From Ignavibacteriaceae bacterium (lineage in GTDB: Bacteria; Bacteroidota; Ignavibacteria; Ignavibacteriales; Ignavibacteriaceae), in the NCBI GenBank assembly GCA_035293265.1, contig DATDOL010000107.1:1-35147 (forward strand): DNA of 35,147 nucleotides, in the 5' to 3' direction. How positions within the stretch are numbered: the stretch's first letter is position 1; each line of letters opens with the position of its first letter. Shown here in pieces: positions 21,069 to 35,147 of the stretch. The notes under the pieces were generated by a model that worked only from the letters and a program-made list of their open reading frames with translations, ran no database searches and was not told the origin of the DNA. A program made the translations under genes and the position numbers.

Positions 21069-22385
21069 CTAATTCACAGGTAATGAAAATTGAATCGATG
21101 TTCCGTTATTACTTTTCAATAATACAATCTCACCGTTATGACGATCGATAATGCTCTTACAAAGAAACAGACCATAACCACCTTTATGCAAACCAAATGT
21201 ATCAAATGAACCGGCATTAATATGTTTGGGTAAACCAGGACCGTCATCCGACATAATTACACAAATTTTATTGTCTTTTTCAAATGACTTTATAAACATC
21301 GTCACGTCTTTTTTTGCCTCTGCAGAATTTGTAATAAGAAGAACTATCAAATGCTGAATTTGTTCTGAATCATAATCGCACAGCGGTAATGCATTTAATT
21401 CTGTTTTAAAGATAATCGAGCTGTATTTTTTCATAGGAGAAAGATATTTAATGACAGATTGAATTGTTCTATTTAAATCCCCGCTGTCTTTGTTAAGATT
21501 CATAATGGAAGTTTCCAACAGCACCTGCGCATATTTCTGTATGCTGCGGATGCTATCGACAGCAACTTTAGACTTTAGCTTGAGACGGTCAAAAATCAGT
21601 GATTCGGGTGCATCTGTTGTGTCATCAAATTCTAACTGAGTTTTTTCAATCATCCTTAATAAACTTTCTGTTTCAAGAAGTGCAAGATGTACAAGTCCTT
21701 GTAATGATTTTCCAATCTCTGCATCAATGCTGGATTTTAATGTTTTTCTTTCTGCTTCTATCAACTGGGCATTGGCTTCCTGCAAAGCATTATAAGCGGC
21801 TATCTGTCCATCATAAAGTTGTGCATTACGAATTGCTGAAGCTGCCTGCCCGGCTAAAATTTCAAAAGTACCTGTTATTTCCCTGACTTTAACTTTTTGA
21901 AGATGTTTGCTATCGACGTAAATAACACCGATCTTTTTTTCATTGGTTATCAGCGGTGAGCAAAGAATTGTTTGCAGATCTAACTGAAGAATACTTTTTG
22001 TAGGATCGTTGGCTGAATCACTTTGTGCGCCTTCAATAAAAATTGATTGCCCGTTTAAGAAAACGTCTTCTACAACAGTGTTGCTTACTAGAAAAGAACT
22101 TTCCGATAAGGAATGATTCTTAGAATCCATTCCAATTTTATATTCGAGGGTTCCGAGAGAATTTTGAAGAACAATAAATCCGCGTTCTGAGTTTGTAAGT
22201 CTTATGGCATTCTTCAGCACAAGTTCAAGTACATCTTCCAATATTAATGAGCGATTTATTGTATTAACAATATTTAGAATCGCTTCAAGATTTTTTACTC
22301 TTTCGGATGATTCATCTTCTGTGAGAATGTTTTTAATTCCATCATCAATATTCTTTTTAAATTCCGAGAACTTCACCACATTCAC
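21069..22385 (-). CDS. GAF-domain sensor kinase-like protein with HATPase_c (non-canonical dimerisation/His region)
   Basis: The N-terminal GAF-like region reads SERGFIVLQN...IGVIYVDS. The C-terminal ATPase boxes are ITNSAEA, DDGPGLP and GGYGLFLCKSII. I see no clear HExxxP H-box. It lies 2 nt upstream of the hybrid kinase gene. Confidence 0.75.
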   Translation of the reverse strand: MNVVKFSEFKKNIDDGIKNILTEDESSERVKNLEAILNIVNTINRSLILEDVLELVLKNAIRLTNSERGFIVLQNSLGTLEYKIGMDSKNHSLSESSFLVSNTVVEDVFLNGQSIFIEGAQSDSANDPTKSILQLDLQTILCSPLITNEKKIGVIYVDSKHLQKVKVREITGTFEILAGQAASAIRNAQLYDGQIAAYNALQEANAQLIEAERKTLKSSIDAEIGKSLQGLVHLALLETESLLRMIEKTQLEFDDTTDAPESLIFDRLKLKSKVAVDSIRSIQKYAQVLLETSIMNLNKDSGDLNRTIQSVIKYLSPMKKYSSIIFKTELNALPLCDYDSEQIQHLIVLLITNSAEAKKDVTMFIKSFEKDNKICVIMSDDGPGLPKHINAGSFDTFGLHKGGYGLFLCKSIIDRHNGEIVLLKSNNGTSIQFSLPVN

Positions 22386-26231: not shown

Positions 26232-26717
26232 TTACCGAACCCAACCATAAAGGCTGCCAAGTTCATCAAGCTGTGTCGATGATCTTACCCAACCATATAA
26301 GCTGCCAAGCTCATCAAGCTGTGTTGACGATCTTACCCAACCATAAAGGCTGCCAAGTTCCTCAAGCTGTGTCGATGATCTTACCCAACCATAACGGCTG
26401 CCAAGTTCCTCAAGCTGTGTTGATGATCTTACCCAACCATATAGGCTGCCAAGTTCCTCAAGCTGAGAAGATGCTCTCACCCAACCATAACGACTACCAA
26501 GTTCCTCTAACTGCGTATTGGAACGCTGATCGAGAACTCTGATGTCAGAATGATTTTCCTCAAGAATTGAGGTATTGTTGTGGGATTCAGTAACAGCAGT
26601 TATATTATCCTCTGAAATTCGATATCGGATTGCCTGATCTACATTGTCGGCAATCTGGGCGATTCCAGAAAAGAATAGTCCCCCACAAATAACCAGGGAT
26701 AATATAAGAAAACGCAT
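26232..26717 (-). CDS. Secreted tandem-repeat peptide precursor: signal peptide, ~60-aa unique region, then six 16-aa units SSTQL[E/D]ELGS[L/R]YGWVR
   Basis: The ORF track starts at GTG 26726, but the ATG at 26717 gives MRFLILSLVICGGLFFSGIAQ, a typical signal peptide. Six in-frame 48-nt repeats fill 26235-26522, and the stop follows the last Arg directly. A sigma-54 promoter lies upstream and a terminator downstream, both on this strand. No known family recognised. Confidence 0.75.
   Translation of the reverse strand: MRFLILSLVICGGLFFSGIAQIADNVDQAIRYRISEDNITAVTESHNNTSILEENHSDIRVLDQRSNTQLEELGSRYGWVRASSQLEELGSLYGWVRSSTQLEELGSRYGWVRSSTQLEELGSLYGWVRSSTQLDELGSLYGWVRSSTQLDELGSLYGWVR
26235..26522 (-). 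repeat. Six contiguous 48-bp tandem repeats (coding, in frame)
   Basis: Unit boundaries are 26235, 26283, 26331, 26379, 26427 and 26475. Units are near-identical with scattered substitutions that are mostly synonymous. There are no spacers between units. Confidence 0.95.
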
Positions 26718-26777
26718 AGCGCCCACTCACTTTAATTGATAATGACACACTTGAACTGCGATTACAACTCACCCGAA

Positions 26778-26816: not shown

Positions 26817-26831
26817 CCAATGTTTGTGCCA
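26817..26831 (-). promoter_or_regulatory. Sigma-54 (-24/-12) promoter candidate: TGGCAC-AAACA-TTGG
   Basis: The minus-strand sequence TGGCACAAACATTGG matches the TGGCAC-N5-TTGC consensus with correct spacing and one mismatch (final C to G). It sits ~100 nt upstream of the repeat-peptide ATG and next to a sigma-54 activator gene. Confidence 0.65.
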
Positions 26832-27038: not shown

Positions 27039-28424
27039 CTACTTCTGTTTTTCCAACAAAGTATCAAGTTTAGGTCGTGAAATGCCAAGCAATTTTGCTG
27101 TTCGTGTTTTATTTCCCTGCAGCTTTTCCAGAACTTTTTCGGCATAAAATTTCTCTAGTTTCCTCAGGTTTGTCGAGCCATAGTTCACTTCAAATTTTAC
27201 CATATGCCTGTTCTCTTCAAATTGATTTTCATCATGAATAGCTTTGATAGAAACTGATTTAATCAGATTTGAAAAATCATCAAGTGTCAATCTTCCATTA
27301 TCTGAAAGTAAAACAGCACGCTCAATCGCATTTCTTAATTCTCTAACATTTCCCGGCCACGGATATCCTAAAAGAAAATGTTTAATGTCTTTATCAACCT
27401 TCCTGATTGTTCTATTAAACTGCTTATTGAATTCTGTAATAAAATGATTAGCCAGAATGATCACGTCTTCACCACGTTCTCTCAACGGAGGTACGTCAAT
27501 AGTAACAACATTAAGTCTATGGTAAAGATCTCTTCGAAACAAATTTTCTTCCACCATTTGTTCAATATTCCTATTTGTTGCTGAAATTATTCTTGCATTG
27601 ATAGGAATATCCACCACTCCACCTAATCTTTTAATCACTTTTTTTTCAATTGCGCGCAACAGTTTTGTTTGAATATTAGGACTAAGATCACCAATTTCAT
27701 CCAGAAACAGGGTGCCTCTGTCTGCTAATTCAAACAAACCGATTTTTCTGTTCCTTGCACTAGTAAAAGCCCCGGCTTCATAGCCGAATAATTCCGATTC
27801 CAGCAAACTTTCGGGAATAGCTGTGCACACAATATCTATAAATGGAAATTGACCTGTTCTCCCATTGTTATGTATTGCTCGTGCAAAAAGTCCTTTGCCG
27901 GTGCCGGTTTCCCCAAGTAATAACACACTTGCGCCGCTTTTTTCCGAAACCTTTTTTGCAAGATCCACTACACGAACAAATTTATCCGATTCACCTATTA
28001 TGGATTTGAGACCACGTCGATTTATCCCAAATGCACCTATTCGATCGGTTTCGGTAATGTAAGATTTGTTTGAAATAACCTCGGCAAGAAATGAAGTGAA
28101 TTTGAGTATTTCGTATGGAAATATAAAAATATCATGAAATCCTTTTTTAAGAAGAGAAGTAACCTGGAGCGAGTCTCCGTTCCGCATTACAATCAAAAAT
28201 ATATTTGAATTTTCTCTCCTAGTTGCCAGAGCTTTCTTAAGAAATAATGATTCCTGTGATTCGATGTGCAGAACAATAATCTCATTATCAAAAACTTCAA
28301 AATTCTCTTCGAAGCTTACAGAGATAGGCATCCCTTTGAGTTCCAATTGCTTAAGGGCAGATGATACTGAAACTGTATCCTGTGAATCGCTAAATACTTT
28401 TATTTTAATCTGGGAATCGGACAT
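27039..28424 (-). CDS. Sigma-54-dependent transcriptional activator (bEBP, NtrC family) with degenerate N-terminal receiver-like domain
   Basis: AAA+ core: Walker A GETGTGKG, ESELFGYEAGAFTSA (GAFTGA loop, 27756-27773), Walker B LFLDEIGDL, and WPGNVRELRN. The C-terminal Fis-type HTH is TRTAKLLGISRPKL. The preferred start is ATG 28424 (MSDSQIK), 4 nt after the kinase stop. The ORF track begins at 28451. Confidence 0.9.
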   Translation of the reverse strand: MSDSQIKIKVFSDSQDTVSVSSALKQLELKGMPISVSFEENFEVFDNEIIVLHIESQESLFLKKALATRRENSNIFLIVMRNGDSLQVTSLLKKGFHDIFIFPYEILKFTSFLAEVISNKSYITETDRIGAFGINRRGLKSIIGESDKFVRVVDLAKKVSEKSGASVLLLGETGTGKGLFARAIHNNGRTGQFPFIDIVCTAIPESLLESELFGYEAGAFTSARNRKIGLFELADRGTLFLDEIGDLSPNIQTKLLRAIEKKVIKRLGGVVDIPINARIISATNRNIEQMVEENLFRRDLYHRLNVVTIDVPPLRERGEDVIILANHFITEFNKQFNRTIRKVDKDIKHFLLGYPWPGNVRELRNAIERAVLLSDNGRLTLDDFSNLIKSVSIKAIHDENQFEENRHMVKFEVNYGSTNLRKLEKFYAEKVLEKLQGNKTRTAKLLGISRPKLDTLLEKQK

Positions 28425-28428
28425 ATAT

Positions 28429-31400
28429 TTAAACCGAACTGTAAGCCTCAATTTTTTCTAAGGCTAACTTAACATCCTTCTGATTTATATATGAGTTCCT
28501 TAACTGCGGAGATTGAATATTTTCTGCAATAAAATTTATCAATTCCTTTGCATAGATAAAAAAACCTTTAGCTCTGTTAAAATTTCCTCTTTCTATATAG
28601 ATATCAGATTGCATCAATAAAACCTTCCAGGTCAATTCTGTAATGCTCTCATCCTTTATTAATTCATACGCTCTTTCCAGGTATTCAATCGGTGGCGAAA
28701 GTCTTTCAGACTCATAAACCGATGCAATTTTTGCCAGAAAATATTCCCTTTGTGATTCTAATATACTGTTTTGATTAATTATTTCAATAAATACTTTGTC
28801 ATTTATTTCGTTTAACGCTTGCTCATAATTCTTTTGATCAATTAAAACTTTGATAATTGTAAAATTTACTTCGGTATACTTATTTCTTTCGTCCATCTCA
28901 ACAAAAGCGTCTCTGATTGATCTTAATCCACTCACCTCAGGAAATTTATTGTCCAGAATTTTATATAAGGCATCGATATACTTCAAGGAATATTTATGCT
29001 TTGGCAGTAAATTTTTTTCTTCGATTAATTTTCTAAATCGATCTAAGATATCTCTCATTCTATTCATACTACCAATCAGGTTATAGAAATTGCCGTAAAG
29101 GTAAAGCACTTCAGCAAGTTCTTCATCATTCTCATTCGCTTCAAAGATTTGCATCGCTTGCTGCAGGGAATTAAAAACATGCTGATACTCGCATCCTATC
29201 ATGTATACCTCAGCAAGATTGTACAAAACCAGACCCTGATTTATTTGATTACCAAGGCTTAAAAATATTTTAATTGCATTTTTGTAGTTCTCTACCGCTC
29301 TATCAAATTTCTGGTGATTATAATAATAGATTCCTGTATTTAGGAGTATCAATCCTTCCTGTTCAAGGTTTCCAATAGATTCGTTTATATCCGATGCCCT
29401 GTTCCAATGTTCTTCTGCTTTTGAATGGATTCCTAAAATATTGAATATGTTTCCTACATTGACTTCAACTCCTGCAACGCGCCGTGGCAATCCTGCCTGT
29501 TTATAATTTTCAATGGCGAACATAAACTCTGTAAGAGCAGAATGAAGATCATTATTCTTATATATATAGCACATCCCAAGCAGGTTGTGACAGCGGCCTC
29601 TGAGTTCAAACGATAATTTTTTATCCTTTAAAAGTGATTTACTTATTCTCGAAGCTTCGTCATATATTTTTTGTTCAAATTCAGCATAAGCCATCTCTAC
29701 AAATATTTTATGTTTCAGGGTTACGTCGACTTTCCGTTTCAGCAATTCATTCAGCATTTTTTTAGCTTCATCAAATTTACCAACGTTAAAAAGTGAACTG
29801 CTTTTCAAAATTTGAATTTCAGTCTGAACCTTATCATCAAGATTTATTCCCTCTAAAGAATTTATAACCTCTAATGCTGATTGATAATCACTCATTTTAT
29901 AATATACATCGCAAAGTTTTATTTTAACATCGGTTTTCTTTATACCCCTGAGTGGTAATCCGGCTAAATGTTCCAATATTTTTTTCATATAAGAATATGC
30001 TGAATGTTTTTCAACATCTTCAATTTCTATGCACATCGTTTCATAACACAAATCATATTTTCCTGCAAGCTCATAATGTCTGGCTAATTCACTTCTATTA
30101 AAATATTGCAGATTTTTTTTGATTCTTTCCGCAAGCACCAGGTGAAGCCCGGTCTTATTTTTAACAGAACTGTATATATGCTTCTTAAATCCATCTGAGG
30201 TTATCAATAACGAGCTGCCTGATGTAAAATGCTGCAGAACATTATAAACCTGAAGTTTGAAAACTATATCAGAAATTTTTTGAAATGGGATGTCAAGTAG
30301 TGCTACAAGTGTGTTCATCTCAATGACAACATCCAAAGCCGAAATAATTTGAACAACTTTTAATTCTGTTTTCGAAAAATTCTTTAATCTATAATCATAA
30401 AGCACTTCATGAGAACTTTTTAATACCCGTATCGCTTCTTCATTTTTATTTATTTCCACTCCGGATGGAAGATGCCTGACGATCCCAAGTAATATTAAAT
30501 CCTTAATAAACGATACTATGCTGCCAGGCAATAAATCAGCGTATTTGACTATGAGATTAATCAATTCTTCCCGGGGAAAGGACGCTGAGTAACTTTGCTT
30601 TATGAATTCTGTGACCTGCACATCGGTAAACGAACTGAGTAAGACATCTCTTACATTATTAATTTCTGTTGATTTGTAACGGTTGTCAGCTGTTTCGGCG
30701 AGAATTATTTTTATGCTGTTTACCTGAAAAATTGGAATGATCGAACTAAGTATTTCAGAGGATAAATCATCAAGCAGGTTGAAGTCATCAATTAATAAAA
30801 TAAACTTAGTCTTTTTAGCAATTAAAGAAATTACCTCCGGCAGCCGAAGTACAAAGCTGGAATCGGATTCATCAGTCAAAGAATTAATTTTTGTAAGTTC
30901 TTCTGTTGAAAGAAAATCATAAACCGATTTTGAAAAAACAATTTCTTTCAAAAGGTATTTAATTAATTTTATCCCGGACTTTCCTTTTTGATTACTGACC
31001 ATAACAGAACCGGGATAAATTTCGTGTACCCTATTCAGTATTGCTGTCTTTCCAGCTCCATCAAATCCTTTTAAAGTAAAAGCCTCACTGCTTGTTTTAT
31101 CATTTATGTAAACAAATAAAATGTTGAGAACATCCGTTCGATCTGAAAATACTTTTGCGGGCAGGAAATCTTTTGTAATCGAGTCATCGACTTCAATTTC
31201 CAAATCACTTAAAACCTGTAATGCGTTTTGAAATCTATCTTCAGGGTTTTTAGCAAGAAGCTTTTTAACAACCTCAATTAGTTCATTTGAATATTTTATA
31301 GTTAGAGGAAAGTCAAATTCATTTTCTAACTTCGATTTATAGATTGCAAGTTCATCCGATGAATTAAAAGGAAACCTGTCATAAATAATCCTGTAAAGCA

Positions 31401-31995
31401 TCATCCCGAGAGAATAAAGATCAACCCTGTGATCATGTTCTTCCTTCTTCAGCAGTTCGGGAGCGATATACTGTGCAGTACCTTTGACATCATTTTTAAG
31501 CTCTTCACTTCCAAGCTGTGCAAATCCAAGATCAATTAATTTAATGACCGGGTTTCCACCGGGGTTTGCGACCAGAATATTTTCGGGTTTCAGATCATAG
31601 TAGATGTAATTTGATTGATGAAGATAATACAAGACTGAGCATATTTGATTTAGTATTATTTTTAATGATAATTCATTCCTTATAAAAACGGATTGAAGCA
31701 GCTCGCTTGATGGAAAATATTCAAGTGTGATGAATGGAACCCCGGATTCAACAGCATCGTTCTCGCTTTTTTCCAGAATTGTTCCAATCTCAAGAGCGCG
31801 AATGATATTCGGATGATCTAGTTTTTTTAAAGTGAAATACTCTCTCCTGAAATATTCTCTTTCAACATCATTTGCCCCGGATGATAAAACTTTTATGGCA
31901 ATTTCAGCATCCATAAACTCAGCGTCTTTACATATGTAAACAGCACTGCGGCCTTGTCCGATTTTTTTAATTATCTCATATCGTTTATTAATCAT
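28429..31995 (-). CDS. Hanks-type Ser/Thr protein kinase fused to a P-loop NTPase (STAND/AAA_16-like) and a long TPR-like helical-repeat C-terminus
   Basis: Kinase motifs: IGQGRSAVY, IAIKVL, YYDLKPENILV (31594-31602 encodes YYD), IDLGFA and YIAPE. Walker A GFDGAGKT lies at 31045-31068, followed by Walker B LLIDDFNLLD. The C-terminal ~550 aa contains repeated TPR-like helical pairs. Its ATG overlaps the OppC-like TGA (ATGA). Confidence 0.85.
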   Translation of the reverse strand: MINKRYEIIKKIGQGRSAVYICKDAEFMDAEIAIKVLSSGANDVEREYFRREYFTLKKLDHPNIIRALEIGTILEKSENDAVESGVPFITLEYFPSSELLQSVFIRNELSLKIILNQICSVLYYLHQSNYIYYDLKPENILVANPGGNPVIKLIDLGFAQLGSEELKNDVKGTAQYIAPELLKKEEHDHRVDLYSLGMMLYRIIYDRFPFNSSDELAIYKSKLENEFDFPLTIKYSNELIEVVKKLLAKNPEDRFQNALQVLSDLEIEVDDSITKDFLPAKVFSDRTDVLNILFVYINDKTSSEAFTLKGFDGAGKTAILNRVHEIYPGSVMVSNQKGKSGIKLIKYLLKEIVFSKSVYDFLSTEELTKINSLTDESDSSFVLRLPEVISLIAKKTKFILLIDDFNLLDDLSSEILSSIIPIFQVNSIKIILAETADNRYKSTEINNVRDVLLSSFTDVQVTEFIKQSYSASFPREELINLIVKYADLLPGSIVSFIKDLILLGIVRHLPSGVEINKNEEAIRVLKSSHEVLYDYRLKNFSKTELKVVQIISALDVVIEMNTLVALLDIPFQKISDIVFKLQVYNVLQHFTSGSSLLITSDGFKKHIYSSVKNKTGLHLVLAERIKKNLQYFNRSELARHYELAGKYDLCYETMCIEIEDVEKHSAYSYMKKILEHLAGLPLRGIKKTDVKIKLCDVYYKMSDYQSALEVINSLEGINLDDKVQTEIQILKSSSLFNVGKFDEAKKMLNELLKRKVDVTLKHKIFVEMAYAEFEQKIYDEASRISKSLLKDKKLSFELRGRCHNLLGMCYIYKNNDLHSALTEFMFAIENYKQAGLPRRVAGVEVNVGNIFNILGIHSKAEEHWNRASDINESIGNLEQEGLILLNTGIYYYNHQKFDRAVENYKNAIKIFLSLGNQINQGLVLYNLAEVYMIGCEYQHVFNSLQQAMQIFEANENDEELAEVLYLYGNFYNLIGSMNRMRDILDRFRKLIEEKNLLPKHKYSLKYIDALYKILDNKFPEVSGLRSIRDAFVEMDERNKYTEVNFTIIKVLIDQKNYEQALNEINDKVFIEIINQNSILESQREYFLAKIASVYESERLSPPIEYLERAYELIKDESITELTWKVLLMQSDIYIERGNFNRAKGFFIYAKELINFIAENIQSPQLRNSYINQKDVKLALEKIEAYSSV

Positions 31996-33281
31996 ATATC
32001 AAGACGCGGATTAAAAAATTTGTTTAATCTTCTTCCAAAATAATTTGCGGAAAAAAGTGTAACGACCAGACAGCCGCCCGGAAATATGATCATCCACCAG
32101 GCTTTTGTGATGTATTCCTGTCCTGACTGTATCATTGCCCCCCATGAAGGATAACTGTCTCCGGTACCTAAACCAAGATAGCTCAGAGCAGATTCTGCAA
32201 GAATAACATTGCTGAATTGAAAAATTAAATTTACAATTACGGGGGCGATGATAACGGGCAATATTTCCCTGAACAAAATTTTATTCGATTTTATTCCGAG
32301 AAGTTTTGAGGTTTGTATATAGTCTTTTTGCTTGAGGGAATTTACTTCTCCTCTTACTATCTTAAATAAACTCATCCATCCTGATATTCCCAGTACAATA
32401 ACTACAGCAAATAATGAACTTGAAAACAATGCAAGAATTAAAACAACCAGGTAAATAACTGGAAATGCCAAAAGTAATTCTGCAAACCTGTTAAGAACCA
32501 TATCAATTAAGCCTCCTTTATAACCTGCAATAAATCCCAGTGTAATACCAAGCAGAAACGAAATAAAGACCGCACCGATTCCAACTAACAAGGATATCCT
32601 TAATCCATAAACTAATCTTGTAAATGTATCTCTGCCGAATTCATCAGTACCGAGAAGAAATGTTTTGGTTGTTACCAAGGGTTCTCTATTATCTTTAATC
32701 AATTTATCGTCCGGAATTTCTTTCATAATATTTTTTTGATGATATAATATTTTATCAGATGTTATAGCACCTATACTGTCGGCGTAAATAATACTTTCAT
32801 TAAATACCTCCCTAAGAATTTTTCTTTTATAAAGCAGGAATTTATTTAAAGAGTTACCCTCAGAACTATCTTCAATTTTCAAATGCAGAACTTTAACTTT
32901 GCTTAATGGAGAAAGGTGTTTGGTTACGCTTAAATTTTTCTGAAAATCCGGGTTCCCTCTTGTAATTATTTGCGCCATTAAAAATGTTATAAGCAGAATT
33001 ATGATAACACCGGATGAAAAATTTAGATTATACTTTAAAATTTTTATCCGCCGGTGATAAACAATCATAATTAATGGAACAAGAATAAAAATTATTAAGG
33101 AAAGCAATGAATCAATAAGTTTAAAATCCAGCAGAGTTAAAGCACCATCGAAATCATTGAACAACAAAGAAAAGTATTTAAACCATAAAACTGCCAGTTC
33201 AGTCAACCTCGTAAATTGCAGTAAAATAATTAGCAGCCAAATTGCTGAAGTGAACTGCCATATTTTTAATTTAAATTTCAT
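31992..33281 (-). CDS. ABC transporter permease, OppC/DppC type, with an N-terminal extension
   Basis: LGTDEFGRDTFTRLVYGLRISL and the BPD-transporter EAA-like loop (ESALSYLGLG) are present. At 429 aa it is clearly longer than a canonical OppC, with extra hydrophobic segments at the N-terminus. Confidence 0.85.
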   Translation of the reverse strand: MKFKLKIWQFTSAIWLLIILLQFTRLTELAVLWFKYFSLLFNDFDGALTLLDFKLIDSLLSLIIFILVPLIMIVYHRRIKILKYNLNFSSGVIIILLITFLMAQIITRGNPDFQKNLSVTKHLSPLSKVKVLHLKIEDSSEGNSLNKFLLYKRKILREVFNESIIYADSIGAITSDKILYHQKNIMKEIPDDKLIKDNREPLVTTKTFLLGTDEFGRDTFTRLVYGLRISLLVGIGAVFISFLLGITLGFIAGYKGGLIDMVLNRFAELLLAFPVIYLVVLILALFSSSLFAVVIVLGISGWMSLFKIVRGEVNSLKQKDYIQTSKLLGIKSNKILFREILPVIIAPVIVNLIFQFSNVILAESALSYLGLGTGDSYPSWGAMIQSGQEYITKAWWMIIFPGGCLVVTLFSANYFGRRLNKFFNPRLDI

Positions 33282-34264
33282 ATCACATTTCCCCGAAGCA
33301 GTCTTTTATCAATTTTTAGTTTAAGAAGATCGGCAATAAAATTAGTGAGTATCATTAAAAGTCCGGCAGCAAAAGTACAGCCGATTATAAGAGGATAATC
33401 CCTGGTTAAAATTGAATCAATTGTCAGTCTTCCCATTCCCGGCAAGCTAAAAATAACTTCAGTAATAAGCGTTCCGCCTAAAAGTATTCCTAATTCAATT
33501 CCGGCAACAGAAATAAACGGACCAATTGCATTTGGAATTACATGCTTCCTAAGAATTGTGTTTTCATTTAATCCATTTGCTCTCAGCTGCACAATAAAAG
33601 TTTGGTGATAAATATCTTCCAGGTTATCCCTCAGATACCGATAAAATAAGGCGATTCCGGCTATCGATAAAGTTATCAACGGAAGAATAAGATGGTGAAT
33701 TTTATCAAGAAGTTTTTCAAAATAATTTAATGAATCATAATCGAGTGAAGTAAAACCAGAAGTTGGAAACAAATCTACCTGGACAGCAAGCAGATAAATC
33801 AGCAGAACACCAATTACAAACGCAGGTGTGCTGTAAAAAATCAGCGAGAGGTTGGAAATTAAATTATCGGTATTTTTATTTTGTTTTTGAATAGTGTAAA
33901 CAGCTAAATAATAACTCACGATAATCTGAACAAGGAAACTGATTGCGGCAATCACAAGCGTGAAGGAAAGAAATTCCCACACAACCGAAGTCACCGGCAT
34001 CCGGTAATTGTAAGATATGCCTAAATCTCCTTTAATTAAGTTAGCGACAAAGCTTAAGTACTGCTCGGGAAGCGGATCATTCAGTTTGAAGTCCTCGGCA
34101 ACTTTTTGTGCTATTTCTGGACTGAGTTCTGGTGAAATAAATTTCTGTGCCGGGTTTCCAGGAGAGATCCTTATTAAAATGAACAGCAGACTAATCAGCA
34201 AAAACAGTGTTATTAAAGAAGAGATTAATCTTTTAATAACTGCTTTACTGAATTTATTATTCAT
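33278..34264 (-). CDS. ABC transporter permease, OppB/DppB type
   Basis: 328 aa. The N-terminus is KRLISSLITLFLLISLLFILIRISPGNP. Also present are DPLPEQYLSFV..L.GDLGISY and the EAA-loop region. A 4-nt overlap joins it to the OppC-like gene. Confidence 0.9.
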   Translation of the reverse strand: MNNKFSKAVIKRLISSLITLFLLISLLFILIRISPGNPAQKFISPELSPEIAQKVAEDFKLNDPLPEQYLSFVANLIKGDLGISYNYRMPVTSVVWEFLSFTLVIAAISFLVQIIVSYYLAVYTIQKQNKNTDNLISNLSLIFYSTPAFVIGVLLIYLLAVQVDLFPTSGFTSLDYDSLNYFEKLLDKIHHLILPLITLSIAGIALFYRYLRDNLEDIYHQTFIVQLRANGLNENTILRKHVIPNAIGPFISVAGIELGILLGGTLITEVIFSLPGMGRLTIDSILTRDYPLIIGCTFAAGLLMILTNFIADLLKLKIDKRLLRGNVI

Positions 34265-34270
34265 AAATTT

Positions 34271-35147
34271 TTAATCGCTGATTTTCCATTCCCAGCAATG
34301 TGTGATTGAACCTAGTGGAGTTATGTGTATGTTTTTAATTCTTTTATTATATACTGTAATATTAGGGATCCAGTATAAAAAAGTTACCGGTTGATCATTA
34401 TGAATTATTTCCTGGAATTTAAAGTACAAATCTTTTTTTCTTTTGTCGGATATTTTTTGTTCCAATTCATTAATTATATCGTCCGCTTGTTTATTCTGAT
34501 AACTAACAAAATTCAACGGGGTCATTTCCAGGTCCGAATACCAGTAAGACTTAAGCTCAACAGGAATAGGGATATACCAGGCTGCCATCCAGGCATCCAT
34601 TTTCTTTTCATACAGGTGATCTATAAATGAACCCATTTCAAGATTAACAATTTTCATTTCTATGCCAATAGAAGCAAGATTATTTTTTATGATAGTTGAA
34701 GCATAATTTCTAAGCGGATTGCCGGACGGAAAATATAATGTAAATCTAAACTCTGTATTATTTTTATCTAAAATTCCATTATTATTGGTATCCTTCCAGT
34801 CTTCTGCTGCAAGAAGTTTTTTTGCCGTTTCGGTATTATACTGATATGCTTTTATTTCCGGGTTAAAATATCTTTTAAAAATTTTTGAAACGGGGCTAAC
34901 TGCTATCTCACCGTAATTCAGCAAATACTCTTCAAGAATTTCCTGATTGTTAATTGCATGCGAAAGTGCAATTCTGACATTTTTATTTCCGAAAAGTTTG
35001 TGCAGTATGATTTTATTTTCTTTAGTGAATAATTCCGGATCAATATTATTCCAACCGATATAATCATACTCTCTTCCCACAACTGAAACAATATTAAGCG
35101 ATTGGTTCTTTCTCATATCCTCAATGTCCTCGGTTTTAACAAGTTCC
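34271..35147 (-). CDS. ABC transporter substrate-binding protein, family 5 (peptide/nickel, OppA/DppA-like); N-terminal part lies outside the window
   Basis: The frame stays open to the window edge, upstream of Met 35116. VRIALSHAINNQEILEE, YQYNTETAKKLLAAEDWKD.NNNGILDK and the FTLYF pattern match SBP_bac_5. Confidence 0.85.
   Translation of the reverse strand, partial: ELVKTEDIEDMRKNQSLNIVSVVGREYDYIGWNNIDPELFTKENKIILHKLFGNKNVRIALSHAINNQEILEEYLLNYGEIAVSPVSKIFKRYFNPEIKAYQYNTETAKKLLAAEDWKDTNNNGILDKNNTEFRFTLYFPSGNPLRNYASTIIKNNLASIGIEMKIVNLEMGSFIDHLYEKKMDAWMAAWYIPIPVELKSYWYSDLEMTPLNFVSYQNKQADDIINELEQKISDKRKKDLYFKFQEIIHNDQPVTFLYWIPNITVYNKRIKNIHITPLGSITHCWEWKISD

Follow-up and report, generated by a model that had tools for sequence, protein, structure and literature searches.

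Cytoplasmic receptors for peptide pheromones are a textbook trait of the Bacillota and their mobile elements, and Gram-negative bacteria are thought to depend on small-molecule autoinducers. How cytoplasmic ligands activate signal transduction ATPases that have numerous domains (STAND proteins) has been modeled on MalT and PH0952 (PMC6468293, PMC4381067), and MalT is in addition regulated by inhibitory proteins (PMC10427625). PknK of Mycobacterium tuberculosis has been named a STAND-class kinase of the MalT subfamily (PMC4381067), and the PknK family is present in an atlas of bacterial kinomes (bioRxiv 10.1101/2025.01.12.632604). Here, we analyze a gene for an 1188-residue kinase in 35,147 nucleotides of DNA from an Ignavibacteriaceae bacterium (assembly GCA_035293265.1, contig DATDOL010000107.1, positions 1 to 35,147; "the window" is this whole stretch). 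The protein carries a Hanks-type Ser/Thr kinase domain and a STAND nucleotide-binding oligomerization domain (NOD) as well as a tetratricopeptide repeat (TPR) sensor, and its gene lies in a cluster with a peptide importer and a secreted, repeat-bearing precursor. We favor, by a modest degree of confidence, the reading that it is a STAND-class kinase of PknK-like architecture that serves as the cytoplasmic receptor kinase of a re-imported peptide signal.

The surroundings of the gene are the first line of evidence. On the minus strand, the genes run from a family-5 substrate-binding protein (SBP) through OppB-like and OppC-like permeases, the kinase, a σ54-dependent activator (bacterial enhancer-binding protein, or bEBP), a gap with a σ54 promoter, and the precursor to a 1,209-residue secreted HExxH/PD40 protein, a GAF-HATPase protein, and a hybrid histidine kinase. 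The same gene order recurs in three long contigs in which the kinase is 42 to 47% identical, and synteny of the cluster (importer, kinase, bEBP, precursor, 1,210-residue protein, GAF kinase, and hybrid kinase) extends over about 80 species-level loci. Permease and kinase genes are separated by -4 nucleotides in 47 loci, and the gap from kinase to bEBP is at most 26 nucleotides in nearly all loci. Each repeat unit of the precursor combines a conserved half, S-x-S-Q-L-[DE]-E-L-G, with a variable half, x-[RK]-[YF]-[GAIV]-[WF]-x-[RK]. The first-pass annotation of this DNA had proposed a cytoplasmic, imported ligand for the kinase, a proposal strengthened by the coupling to an Opp-like importer, by the nearby secreted precursor, and by the covariation described below.

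If the TPR sensor reads the peptide, the two should diversify together, and they appear to do so. Partial Mantel tests, which are liberal for related sequences, covered 60 loci that combine a full-length kinase with a peptide unit and were controlled for the kinase domain, the bEBP, or the first permease. Divergence of TPR residues 831 to 990 followed divergence of the variable half of the peptide (partial r, 0.30 to 0.38; P = 0.001), whereas the kinase domain and NOD gave a partial r of about 0 (-0.06 to 0.07). Rate differences do not explain the contrast between TPR and NOD because the NOD evolves equally fast (mean p-distance, 0.59 for both NOD and TPR 831 to 990). The SBP also correlated with the peptide (partial r, 0.15 to 0.39), which is what a peptide-binding protein should show; the permeases followed the variable residues weakly, and the GAF-HATPase protein gave a partial r of -0.10 to -0.25. 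In a sliding window, the correlation peaked at residues 811 to 900.

Sister pairs of loci point the same way. In 24 independent pairs, the ratio of divergence in residues 801 to 920 to that in residues 1 to 650 was 0.41 when the two members had the same peptide, defined as an identical variable half (n = 6), and 1.15 when the peptides differed (n = 18; Mann-Whitney P = 1e-4; Spearman rho = 0.65), with P values that are optimistic because the 801-to-920 segment was picked after the sliding-window result. When the peptide was the same, no other part of the protein was as conserved as that segment (e.g., 0.05 to 0.15 versus 0.4 to 0.68 for the NOD). Moreover, three of the pairs with different peptides have a sharply bordered TPR replacement within otherwise near-identical proteins, a pattern suggestive of exchange of the sensor as a cassette by recombination, akin to pherotype switching. 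The replaced blocks cover residues ~681 to 1188 in L054/L066, 801 to 1080 in L048/L079, and 681 to 1080 in L034/L051; these blocks are 40 to 75% diverged where the kinase and NOD parts differ by 5 to 25%. We conclude that coevolution of the TPR sensor with the peptide is likely.

How the sensor might hold a peptide can be approached from its predicted structure. An AlphaFold2 (AF2) model of residues 640 to 1188 (predicted local distance difference test score [pLDDT], 92.6) is a TPR superhelix of about 540 residues, in keeping with the roughly 550 residues of TPR-like repeats noted in the first-pass annotation. In VIA structural alignments, its best match was RapI (Z, 23.1; 348 of 359 residues aligned, with model residues 84 to 438 corresponding to protein residues 723 to 1077), and high scores were also obtained with Pins (21.9), LGN (21.8), OGT (20.5), RapH (19.9), MalT domain III (18.9), NprR-NprX (18.6), phi105 Rap with peptide (18.4), and pLS20 Rap (18.1). 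The 16 best matches include RapI, four more RRNPP receptors, and MalT domain III, and Foldseek returned OGT, LGN/Pins, and other TPR superhelices. The likeness to Rap is suggestive only, because TPR superhelices score high generically and Pins and LGN come near RapI. At the sequence level, no match of the sensor to Rap/NprR-type peptide receptors was found. Thus, the modeled sensor has a TPR geometry suggestive of peptide receptors, and homology is not implied. N846, G848, N849, N871, G875, and G888 are invariant in the TPR core.

Upstream of the sensor, the protein appears to carry a STAND switch. An AF2 model of residues 268 to 665 built with 60 homologs (pLDDT, 87; predicted TM score, 0.80) shows a Rossmann-like nucleotide-binding domain (NBD), a helical domain (HD), a winged-helix region (WHD), and extra helices, that is, an NBD-HD-WHD-arm arrangement. 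The top VIA-align match was MalT (8bob; Z, 19.1; 343 residues aligned), followed by the TPR-sensor STAND protein PH0952 (6mfv; Z, 18.5), Apaf-1 (Z, 14.8), and then NRC2, NLRPs, and Cdc6/ORC. Foldseek concurred, with 6mfv at an E value of 1.4e-9. A profile search of the NOD against the PDB gave only insignificant P-loop matches to ABC ATPases and no solved STAND protein, and Pfam AAA_16 scored 32.5 bits at residues 302 to 420, just below its cutoff of 32.6, although PF13191 is annotated in many orthologs. Because the sequence profiles are insignificant, the STAND assignment rests on fold comparison and the borderline AAA_16 match. On the strength of the models, we take the middle region to be a STAND NOD of the MalT clade.

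Residues of the nucleotide site are of interest in this context. At the second acidic position of Walker B, 53 loci have D and 17 have A, G, N, or S, a loss hinting that some members of the family have a NOD that hydrolyzes ATP slowly or can dispense with hydrolysis. H618 is the sole invariant His of the NOD, and P490-G491 is also invariant. In the resting state, STAND proteins are ADP bound, with a His of the WHD (H382 in PH0952) and a GxP motif contacting ADP (PMC6468293).

The N-terminal kinase domain is unusual in its catalytic loop. Pfam Pkinase (PF00069) matches residues 6 to 260 (E = 6e-44; 150.8 bits versus a cutoff of 31.7), and all PDB sequence matches of the whole protein are to kinase domains (CDPKs and PknB). 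In 20 full-length orthologs (42 to 87% identity), the catalytic set is complete and invariant (K35, the β3 Lys; E52, the αC Glu; D134; N139; D155; and A178-P179-E180), and Y132, Y133, K136, G157, D192, and R254 are invariant as well, as are G310, G315, K316, and D403 in the NOD. With such invariance in 20 orthologs and YYD in 81 of 84 loci, the kinase and NTPase motifs are not chance. The equivalent of HRD was YYD in those 81 full-length loci and YFD in 1, and in members at 21 to 35% identity, it was Y[YFHGTSNL]D or HFD. No family member examined, close or distant, has Arg at the HRD position, and the proteins are thus non-RD kinases. Because Arg is never seen, even at 21 to 35% identity, the non-RD state is a defining and ancient trait of the family, and what had been noted for a single protein holds family-wide. 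The substitution of DLG for DFG, also noted earlier, is real in this protein but not general: the 84 loci include 63 with DLG, 11 with DFG, and 3 with DMG, and more distant members all have DFG. DFG is thus ancestral, and DLG is limited to the window's own family.

What the non-RD loop means for regulation is less direct. Active kinases can have Tyr at the His position of HRD, as does PKA (YRD), and the HRD Arg normally clamps a phosphorylated residue of the activation loop. Here, the activation segment is short, with 26 residues from DLG to APE, and in the 20-sequence alignment, it has no conserved Ser/Thr except the universal GT (T173), which fits a kinase predicted not to be gated by loop phosphorylation. 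The first-pass annotation had noted that non-RD kinases are often regulated by other means; the loop itself is as described, but the consequence cannot be assumed, as the non-RD plant kinase EFR requires activation-loop phosphorylation (PMC8463890). NCBIfam matches to the kinase domain were generic, with MAD6 at 87.8 bits versus a cutoff of 460. PP2C-type phosphatases and two or more further Hanks kinases are encoded in the metagenome-assembled genome (MAG; 62% complete) as well, and therefore a toolkit for reversible Ser/Thr phosphosignaling exists. Two other Hanks kinases of the MAG are truncated by contig ends before the catalytic loop.

The gene itself is well defined (Table 1). A plus-strand frame over the same coordinates contains many stops and was rejected, and the gene was assigned to the minus strand, where a 4-nucleotide overlap joins its start to the stop of the upstream permease gene and a 23-nucleotide overlap joins its 3' end to the annotated start of the σ54 activator open reading frame (ORF). 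All motifs claimed in advance were recovered, both in the kinase domain (GQGRSAV at residues 13 to 19, IAIK with K35, YYDLKPEN at 132 to 139, and APE at 178 to 180) and in the NTPase (GFDGAGKT at 310 to 317 and LLIDD at 400 to 404). The Walker A/B NTPase in a STAND layout that these motifs had suggested agrees with the MalT/PH0952 fold matches and with the invariance of K316 and D403; likewise, by Pfam and the AF2 models, the middle region folds as a NOD and the C terminus as a TPR superhelix. Several Pfam TPR families match residues 694 to 1065. Residue 1 already belongs to the kinase domain, and neither a signal peptide nor a membrane helix was found when the protein was scanned for them. 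Hydrophobic windows are few (maximum Kyte-Doolittle-19 value, 1.94 at residue 488), and all lie within the confidently modeled globular NOD, in accord with the earlier view that a transmembrane segment is absent. The protein is thus predicted to be soluble and cytoplasmic.

Table 1. Features of the kinase gene and its cluster in the window
Feature	Residues	Position	Strand	Basis or remark
Kinase-NOD-TPR gene	1-1188	28429..31995	minus	Single 1188-aa ORF
Hanks-type Ser/Thr kinase domain	1-262	31210..31995	minus	Pkinase E 6e-44, PDB matches, invariant residues
Catalytic loop YYDLKPEN	132-139	31579..31602	minus	Tyr in place of HRD Arg; YYD 81/84
DLG, Mg-binding DFG equivalent	155-157	31525..31533	minus	DLG/DFG/DMG counts in close relatives
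STAND NOD plus arm (predicted)	263-650	30046..31209	minus	AF2, VIA, Foldseek
Walker A GFDGAGKT	310-317	31045..31068	minus	G310, G315, K316 invariant
Walker B hhhhDD	399-404	30784..30801	minus	D403 invariant
TPR sensor superhelix (predicted)	651-1188	28432..30045	minus	29 helices, ~14 repeats; AF2, VIA, Foldseek
TPR core, putative peptide-specificity region	801-920	29236..29595	minus	Peak of correlation with peptide divergence
Family-5 peptide-binding protein (SBP)		34271..35146	minus	Pfam SBP_bac_5; 5' end cut by window edge
OppB-like permease		33278..34264	minus	Pfam, synteny
OppC-like permease, translationally coupled to kinase gene		31992..33281	minus	Pfam BPD_transp_1
σ54-dependent activator (bEBP)		27039..28451	minus	Pfam Sigma54_activat E 2e-62
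bEBP N-domain		28005-28424	minus	Asp-less, receiver-like pattern
σ54 -24/-12 element upstream of precursor gene		26817..26831	minus	Sequence pattern TGGCAC-N5-TTGG
Secreted precursor, six 16-aa repeats, presumed ligand source		26232..26726	minus	Sec-type signal peptide
GAF-HATPase_c protein, without recognizable HisKA		21069..22385	minus	Besides importer, kinase family's most constant neighbor

The kinase belongs to a large family of restricted distribution. A word-indexed search returned 760 relatives, and the best 120 of these are nearly all 1,181 to 1,200 residues long and match over their full length at 42 to 99% identity, with three shorter or partial; the named organisms among these 120 are all Ignavibacteria MAGs. 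An exhaustive search with residues 265 to 1188 gave 172 clusters at 50% identity with E < 1e-30. The full-length matches listed are about 1,170 to 1,250 residues long, each with about 265 to 430 residues N terminal to the match, and none of the matches listed carries the NOD-TPR module on another effector. Of 201 genomes sampled from the same order, 98 have the gene (66 of 92 genomes in family f1, 30 of 92 in f3, and 1 of 14 in f4), mostly as a single copy, and because of this incidence, we regard it as a lineage-specific accessory gene and not a core gene. Decayed copies with 6 to 16 in-frame stops are present at G050:C5:372368-374947, G140:C6:483834-486576, and G178:C16:638559-640553. No relevant paper emerged from a search of the literature on Ignavibacteria kinases, σ54, and TPRs, on RRNPP systems in Ignavibacteria, and on STAND kinases in connection with Opp, σ54, or quorum sensing.

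Other parts of the cluster vary in informative ways. In most loci, two ABC ATPase genes lie divergently upstream of the SBP gene (e.g., L002:4494-6013 and L003:4420-5993, both on the minus strand), and the operon in the window shows no ATPase gene because such a pair would lie past position 35147. In about 17 of 80 loci, the SBP query found no family-5 SBP gene between the divergent ATPases and the first permease (L001 [the same as L008], L020, L021, L025, L029, L033, L034, L036, L040, L041, L048, L051, L060, L063, L067, L079, and L080); L001 additionally has its first permease divided between two ORFs. In such loci, the importer may be degenerating or may rely on an SBP encoded elsewhere. Of 57 orthologous intergenic regions upstream of the precursor, 46 have the relaxed σ54 promoter pattern TGGCAY-N5-TTG, which lies 52 to 130 nucleotides from the precursor start in 44 of them and farther away in 2; a stricter pattern matched 3 of the 57 loci.

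More distant members of the family (21 to 30% identity) indicate which parts of the cluster are constant. Importer, kinase, and GAF-HATPase genes are kept in 18 of 18 sampled diverged loci (L089 to L106), in L084 and L086, and beside both kinase copies of one genome, G081; the contig of L085 stops before the position of the GAF-HATPase gene. Diverged loci encode a lipoprotein of about 190 residues and a TPR-like protein of about 420 residues, either in place of the tandem precursor and the 1,210-residue protein or alongside them; the TPR-like protein has no signal peptide, and its gene usually follows that of the lipoprotein. The lipoprotein genes were found at L084:10934-11512, L085:11976-12530, and L086:15298-15858, in G081 (L087/L088), and among L089 to L106. 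The lipoprotein ends in HFSR[YF]GFx[RK], a motif shared with the variable half of the repeat peptide, such that the motif of the secreted precursor, SR[YF]G[WF]x[RK], comes either in tandem 16-mers or on a lipoprotein tail. Two loci, L094 and L101, carry both repeat-precursor and p420-type genes, and L094 has the lipoprotein too. In G081, the two kinases are paralogs and the two tails differ (...SRFGFVR and ...SIYGFGI). Both kinase copies are intact and lie about 10 kb apart (G081:C2:24187-36761), and a separate GAF-HATPase gene and lipoprotein gene accompany each of them. By these comparisons, the constant set is the importer, the STAND kinase, a secreted protein bearing SR[YF]G[FW], and the GAF-HATPase protein.

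Which regulator the kinase would act on is complex. In the window, the bEBP likely starts at the ATG at 28424 (MSDSQ...), and its N-terminal domain has the invariant residues S12, D16, S59, N74, G95, P103, and E105. Relative to receivers, the acidic pocket is lost: the DD of β1 reads S-D, the phosphoacceptor Asp of β3 is replaced by Q, K, H, or N, and the K-P of β5 reads F-P. Numbered from the MSDSQ start, Ser12 and Ser59 flank the site at which receivers bear the phosphoacceptor Asp. This domain had been put forward as the prime candidate substrate, and the bEBP gene does adjoin the kinase gene in nearly all close relatives. However, the activator adjoins the kinase in only 10 of 18 diverged loci, where the GAF-HATPase gene is retained in all 18. 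Thus, the bEBP is a frequent but not universal output, and the GAF-HATPase protein may, on the same counts, be the more ancient partner or substrate.

From the domain identities, the synteny, and the covariation, we infer a circuit in which each step of binding, oligomerization, and phosphotransfer is proposed. The precursor would be exported and then cleaved into peptides, and the SBP5/OppBC-like transporter would re-import them. At rest, the NOD would be ADP bound and autoinhibited by the arm and the sensor. Peptide would bind the groove on the concave face of the TPR sensor and, as in MalT and PH0952, lift autoinhibition to allow exchange of ADP for ATP and multimerization, which in turn would gather the N-terminal kinase domains and activate them by induced proximity. 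The kinase probably needs no phosphorylated activation loop, because it lacks the HRD Arg. Once active, it would phosphorylate a downstream regulator, either the bEBP, the GAF-HATPase protein, or both. In this lineage, the likeliest substrate is the Asp-less, receiver-like domain of the bEBP, with its invariant Ser12 and Ser59 near the former acidic pocket, and phosphorylation of either Ser as a stand-in for phospho-Asp is an attractive idea. The GAF-HATPase protein is an equally serious candidate, as an alternative or additional target. Finally, the σ54 promoter of the precursor gene would be switched on, giving positive feedback and possibly activating further targets.

Several observations weigh against this circuit, in addition to the limits of the statistics and of the structural comparison given above. 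Small changes in the peptide (Y/F, I/L, and A/G) occur without matching changes in the TPR core. A nearest-neighbor test of peptide similarity was nearly flat, with 1.63 for TPR 831 to 990 versus 1.72 to 1.80 for the bEBP and the remainder of the kinase protein, and the roughly 10 independent changes at the W/F position of the peptide are too few for a site-level association over 1,188 columns. Variation of Walker B in about a quarter of the members suggests that the ATPase cycle may be atypical. With regard to output, 8 of 18 diverged loci lack a bEBP gene beside the kinase. Sequence comparison gave no statistical support for homology between the N-terminal domain of the bEBP and receivers, and a pseudoreceiver is an unproven idea: a PDB profile search returned CheY2 alone (E = 0.29), and hhalign against the receiver domains of the neighboring hybrid kinase gave a probability of 0.1%.

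Alternatively, the kinase might report the activity of the importer and not the identity of a ligand. As with MalT and MalK, an idle importer could inhibit the TPR/NOD region by way of the ATPases or the extended OppC-like permease, and release during substrate transport would make the kinase a sensor of flux. We consider this unlikely, though deserving of attention: the NOD is structurally closest to MalT, which is known to be under the control of inhibitory proteins (PMC10427625), the kinase gene is translationally coupled to a permease gene in most loci, and the importer is the most constant neighbor. Sensing of flux, however, leaves unexplained why TPR residues 801 to 920 follow the variable residues of the peptide when the permeases do so only weakly, and why the TPR is exchanged in blocks when the peptide differs. 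Moreover, the importer is apart from the kinase or inverted in several diverged loci (L090, L091, L096, and L102). The peptide might instead have a different receptor, either the GAF domain of the GAF-HATPase protein or the ~420-residue TPR-like protein of diverged loci, and the STAND kinase would then integrate another cytoplasmic cue or be an adaptor with a protein partner bound to its TPR. TPR domains often bind proteins and not free peptides, and all 18 diverged loci and the majority of close ones have a GAF-HATPase gene along with the kinase gene. Nonetheless, divergence of the GAF-HATPase protein has no positive partial correlation with that of the peptide (r, -0.10 to -0.25), and the cluster in the window has no ~420-residue protein, making a separate receptor rather improbable.

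Covariation would also arise if the TPR recognized the peptide as a substrate, with the kinase phosphorylating Ser/Thr residues of the precursor or of the imported peptide, in the manner of class III/IV lanthipeptide synthetases. An S-x-S opens every repeat, and the kinase domain has weak matches to LanL/LanKC (29 to 57 bits). Those matches, however, reach 56.8 and 29.1 bits against cutoffs of 650 and 575 and cover the kinase domain only, and the protein has no lyase or cyclase domain. The precursor bears a signal peptide of the Sec type and has a secreted HExxH protein as its partner, the S-x-S half is invariant while the part that covaries is the aromatic C-terminal half, and a NOD switch would be unexpected in a biosynthetic enzyme. 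A role in peptide modification thus seems very improbable to us. We give hardly any credence to a role in antiphage conflict, in which an Avs/NLR-like TPR would sense an invader protein and the kinase would be the effector. Bacterial STAND NTPases with repeat sensors are common in defense, and PADLOC kinase models (mad6 and PD-T4-6) match the kinase domain, but no full-length match to the PADLOC defense models was found: mad6, PD-T4-6, and MkoA cover the generic kinase domain at residues 3 to 275. The gene, moreover, is mostly single copy and syntenic in a conserved chromosomal regulatory cluster across the order, outside variable islands, and it is partnered with an importer, a σ54 activator, and sensor kinases. 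The defense and lanthipeptide readings were dropped, as the kinase domain alone matches and the NCBIfam scores for MAD6 and the lanthipeptide families are below cutoff. We therefore retain the peptide-receptor kinase as our working model.

The combination of kinase, STAND switch, and sensor is already known and not new. Like PknK, the window's protein has an N-terminal Hanks kinase, an AAA_16/MalT-type NOD, and a C-terminal helical-repeat sensor and is predicted to be soluble and cytoplasmic; the two are likened by architecture alone. Unlike PknK, the Ignavibacteria family is non-RD (YYD), has a fixed length of about 1,190 residues, is confined to Ignavibacteriales-type genomes, and is embedded in a cluster of importer, precursor, and σ54 genes, a setting not reported for PknK. 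What is new is a large, undescribed, and strictly non-RD family in an importer/secreted-peptide circuit, together with comparative evidence that the sensor diversifies with a genetically encoded peptide. If the model is correct, intracellular peptide sensing reaches a distant diderm phylum, and the receptor has a new design in which ligand-gated oligomerization of a NOD drives a kinase. The family would then offer a tractable model, with a genetically encoded ligand, for STAND kinases like PknK, the inducers of which are unknown. Sister pairs with the same and with different peptides, and the block-wise TPR replacements, are natural material for specificity swaps. The proposed circuit would also tie Ser/Thr phosphorylation to σ54 enhancer-binding proteins that lack a phospho-Asp site.

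Other STAND proteins share the switch but differ in what it controls. MalT of Escherichia coli (8bob and 1hz4) and PH0952 of Pyrococcus horikoshii (6mfv) are the best fold matches of the NOD, MalT domain III resembles the sensor, and MalT too is a regulator tied to ABC import that senses an imported or import-derived ligand, as is presumed here (PMC6468293, PMC10427625). In contrast, MalT has a C-terminal LuxR-type DNA-binding effector and responds to maltotriose, whereas the protein studied here has an N-terminal kinase and presumably a peptide ligand, and sequence similarity to MalT or PH0952 is undetectable by profile searches. Apaf-1, NLRs, and plant resistosomes have the same NBD-HD-WHD fold (Z, 12 to 15), and ligand-induced oligomerization that activates an N-terminal effector by proximity is proposed here as well, but the sensor is a TPR and not WD40 or leucine-rich repeats, the effector is a kinase, and the context is regulatory and not cell death or immunity. 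AfsR of Streptomyces (SARP-NOD-TPR; PMC10936776) has the arrangement of NOD plus TPR, and its TPR region gives a weak NCBIfam match at residues 740 to 982 (E = 5e-7; 28 bits versus a cutoff of 1,430); AfsR, however, has a SARP DNA-binding effector and is the substrate of a kinase, not a kinase itself.

The closest parallel to the proposed circuit is RRNPP(A) signaling (Rap, NprR, PlcR, PrgX, and AimR; PMC9765709), in which, as we infer here, a secreted propeptide is re-imported by an Opp-type transporter and bound by a cytoplasmic TPR receptor, and in which receptor and peptide diversify together. Instead of a helix-turn-helix or Rap-type N-terminal effector, the Ignavibacteria protein has a NOD switch and a kinase. 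Its host is a diderm of the FCB group and not one of the Bacillota, and its presumed ligand comes from a tandem multicopy polyprotein or a lipoprotein tail and not from a single short propeptide. It is therefore only tentatively, and with slightly less than even conviction, that we propose the full parallel, namely, an RRNPP-like circuit in the Ignavibacteriales in which a NOD switch with a non-RD kinase is the pheromone receptor (a bacterial "NLR-kinase," in effect), signals to a σ54 activator, and changes pherotype by exchange of TPR-core and peptide cassettes. There is nonetheless a substantial chance that the family represents a new class of receptor for peptide signaling in bacteria.

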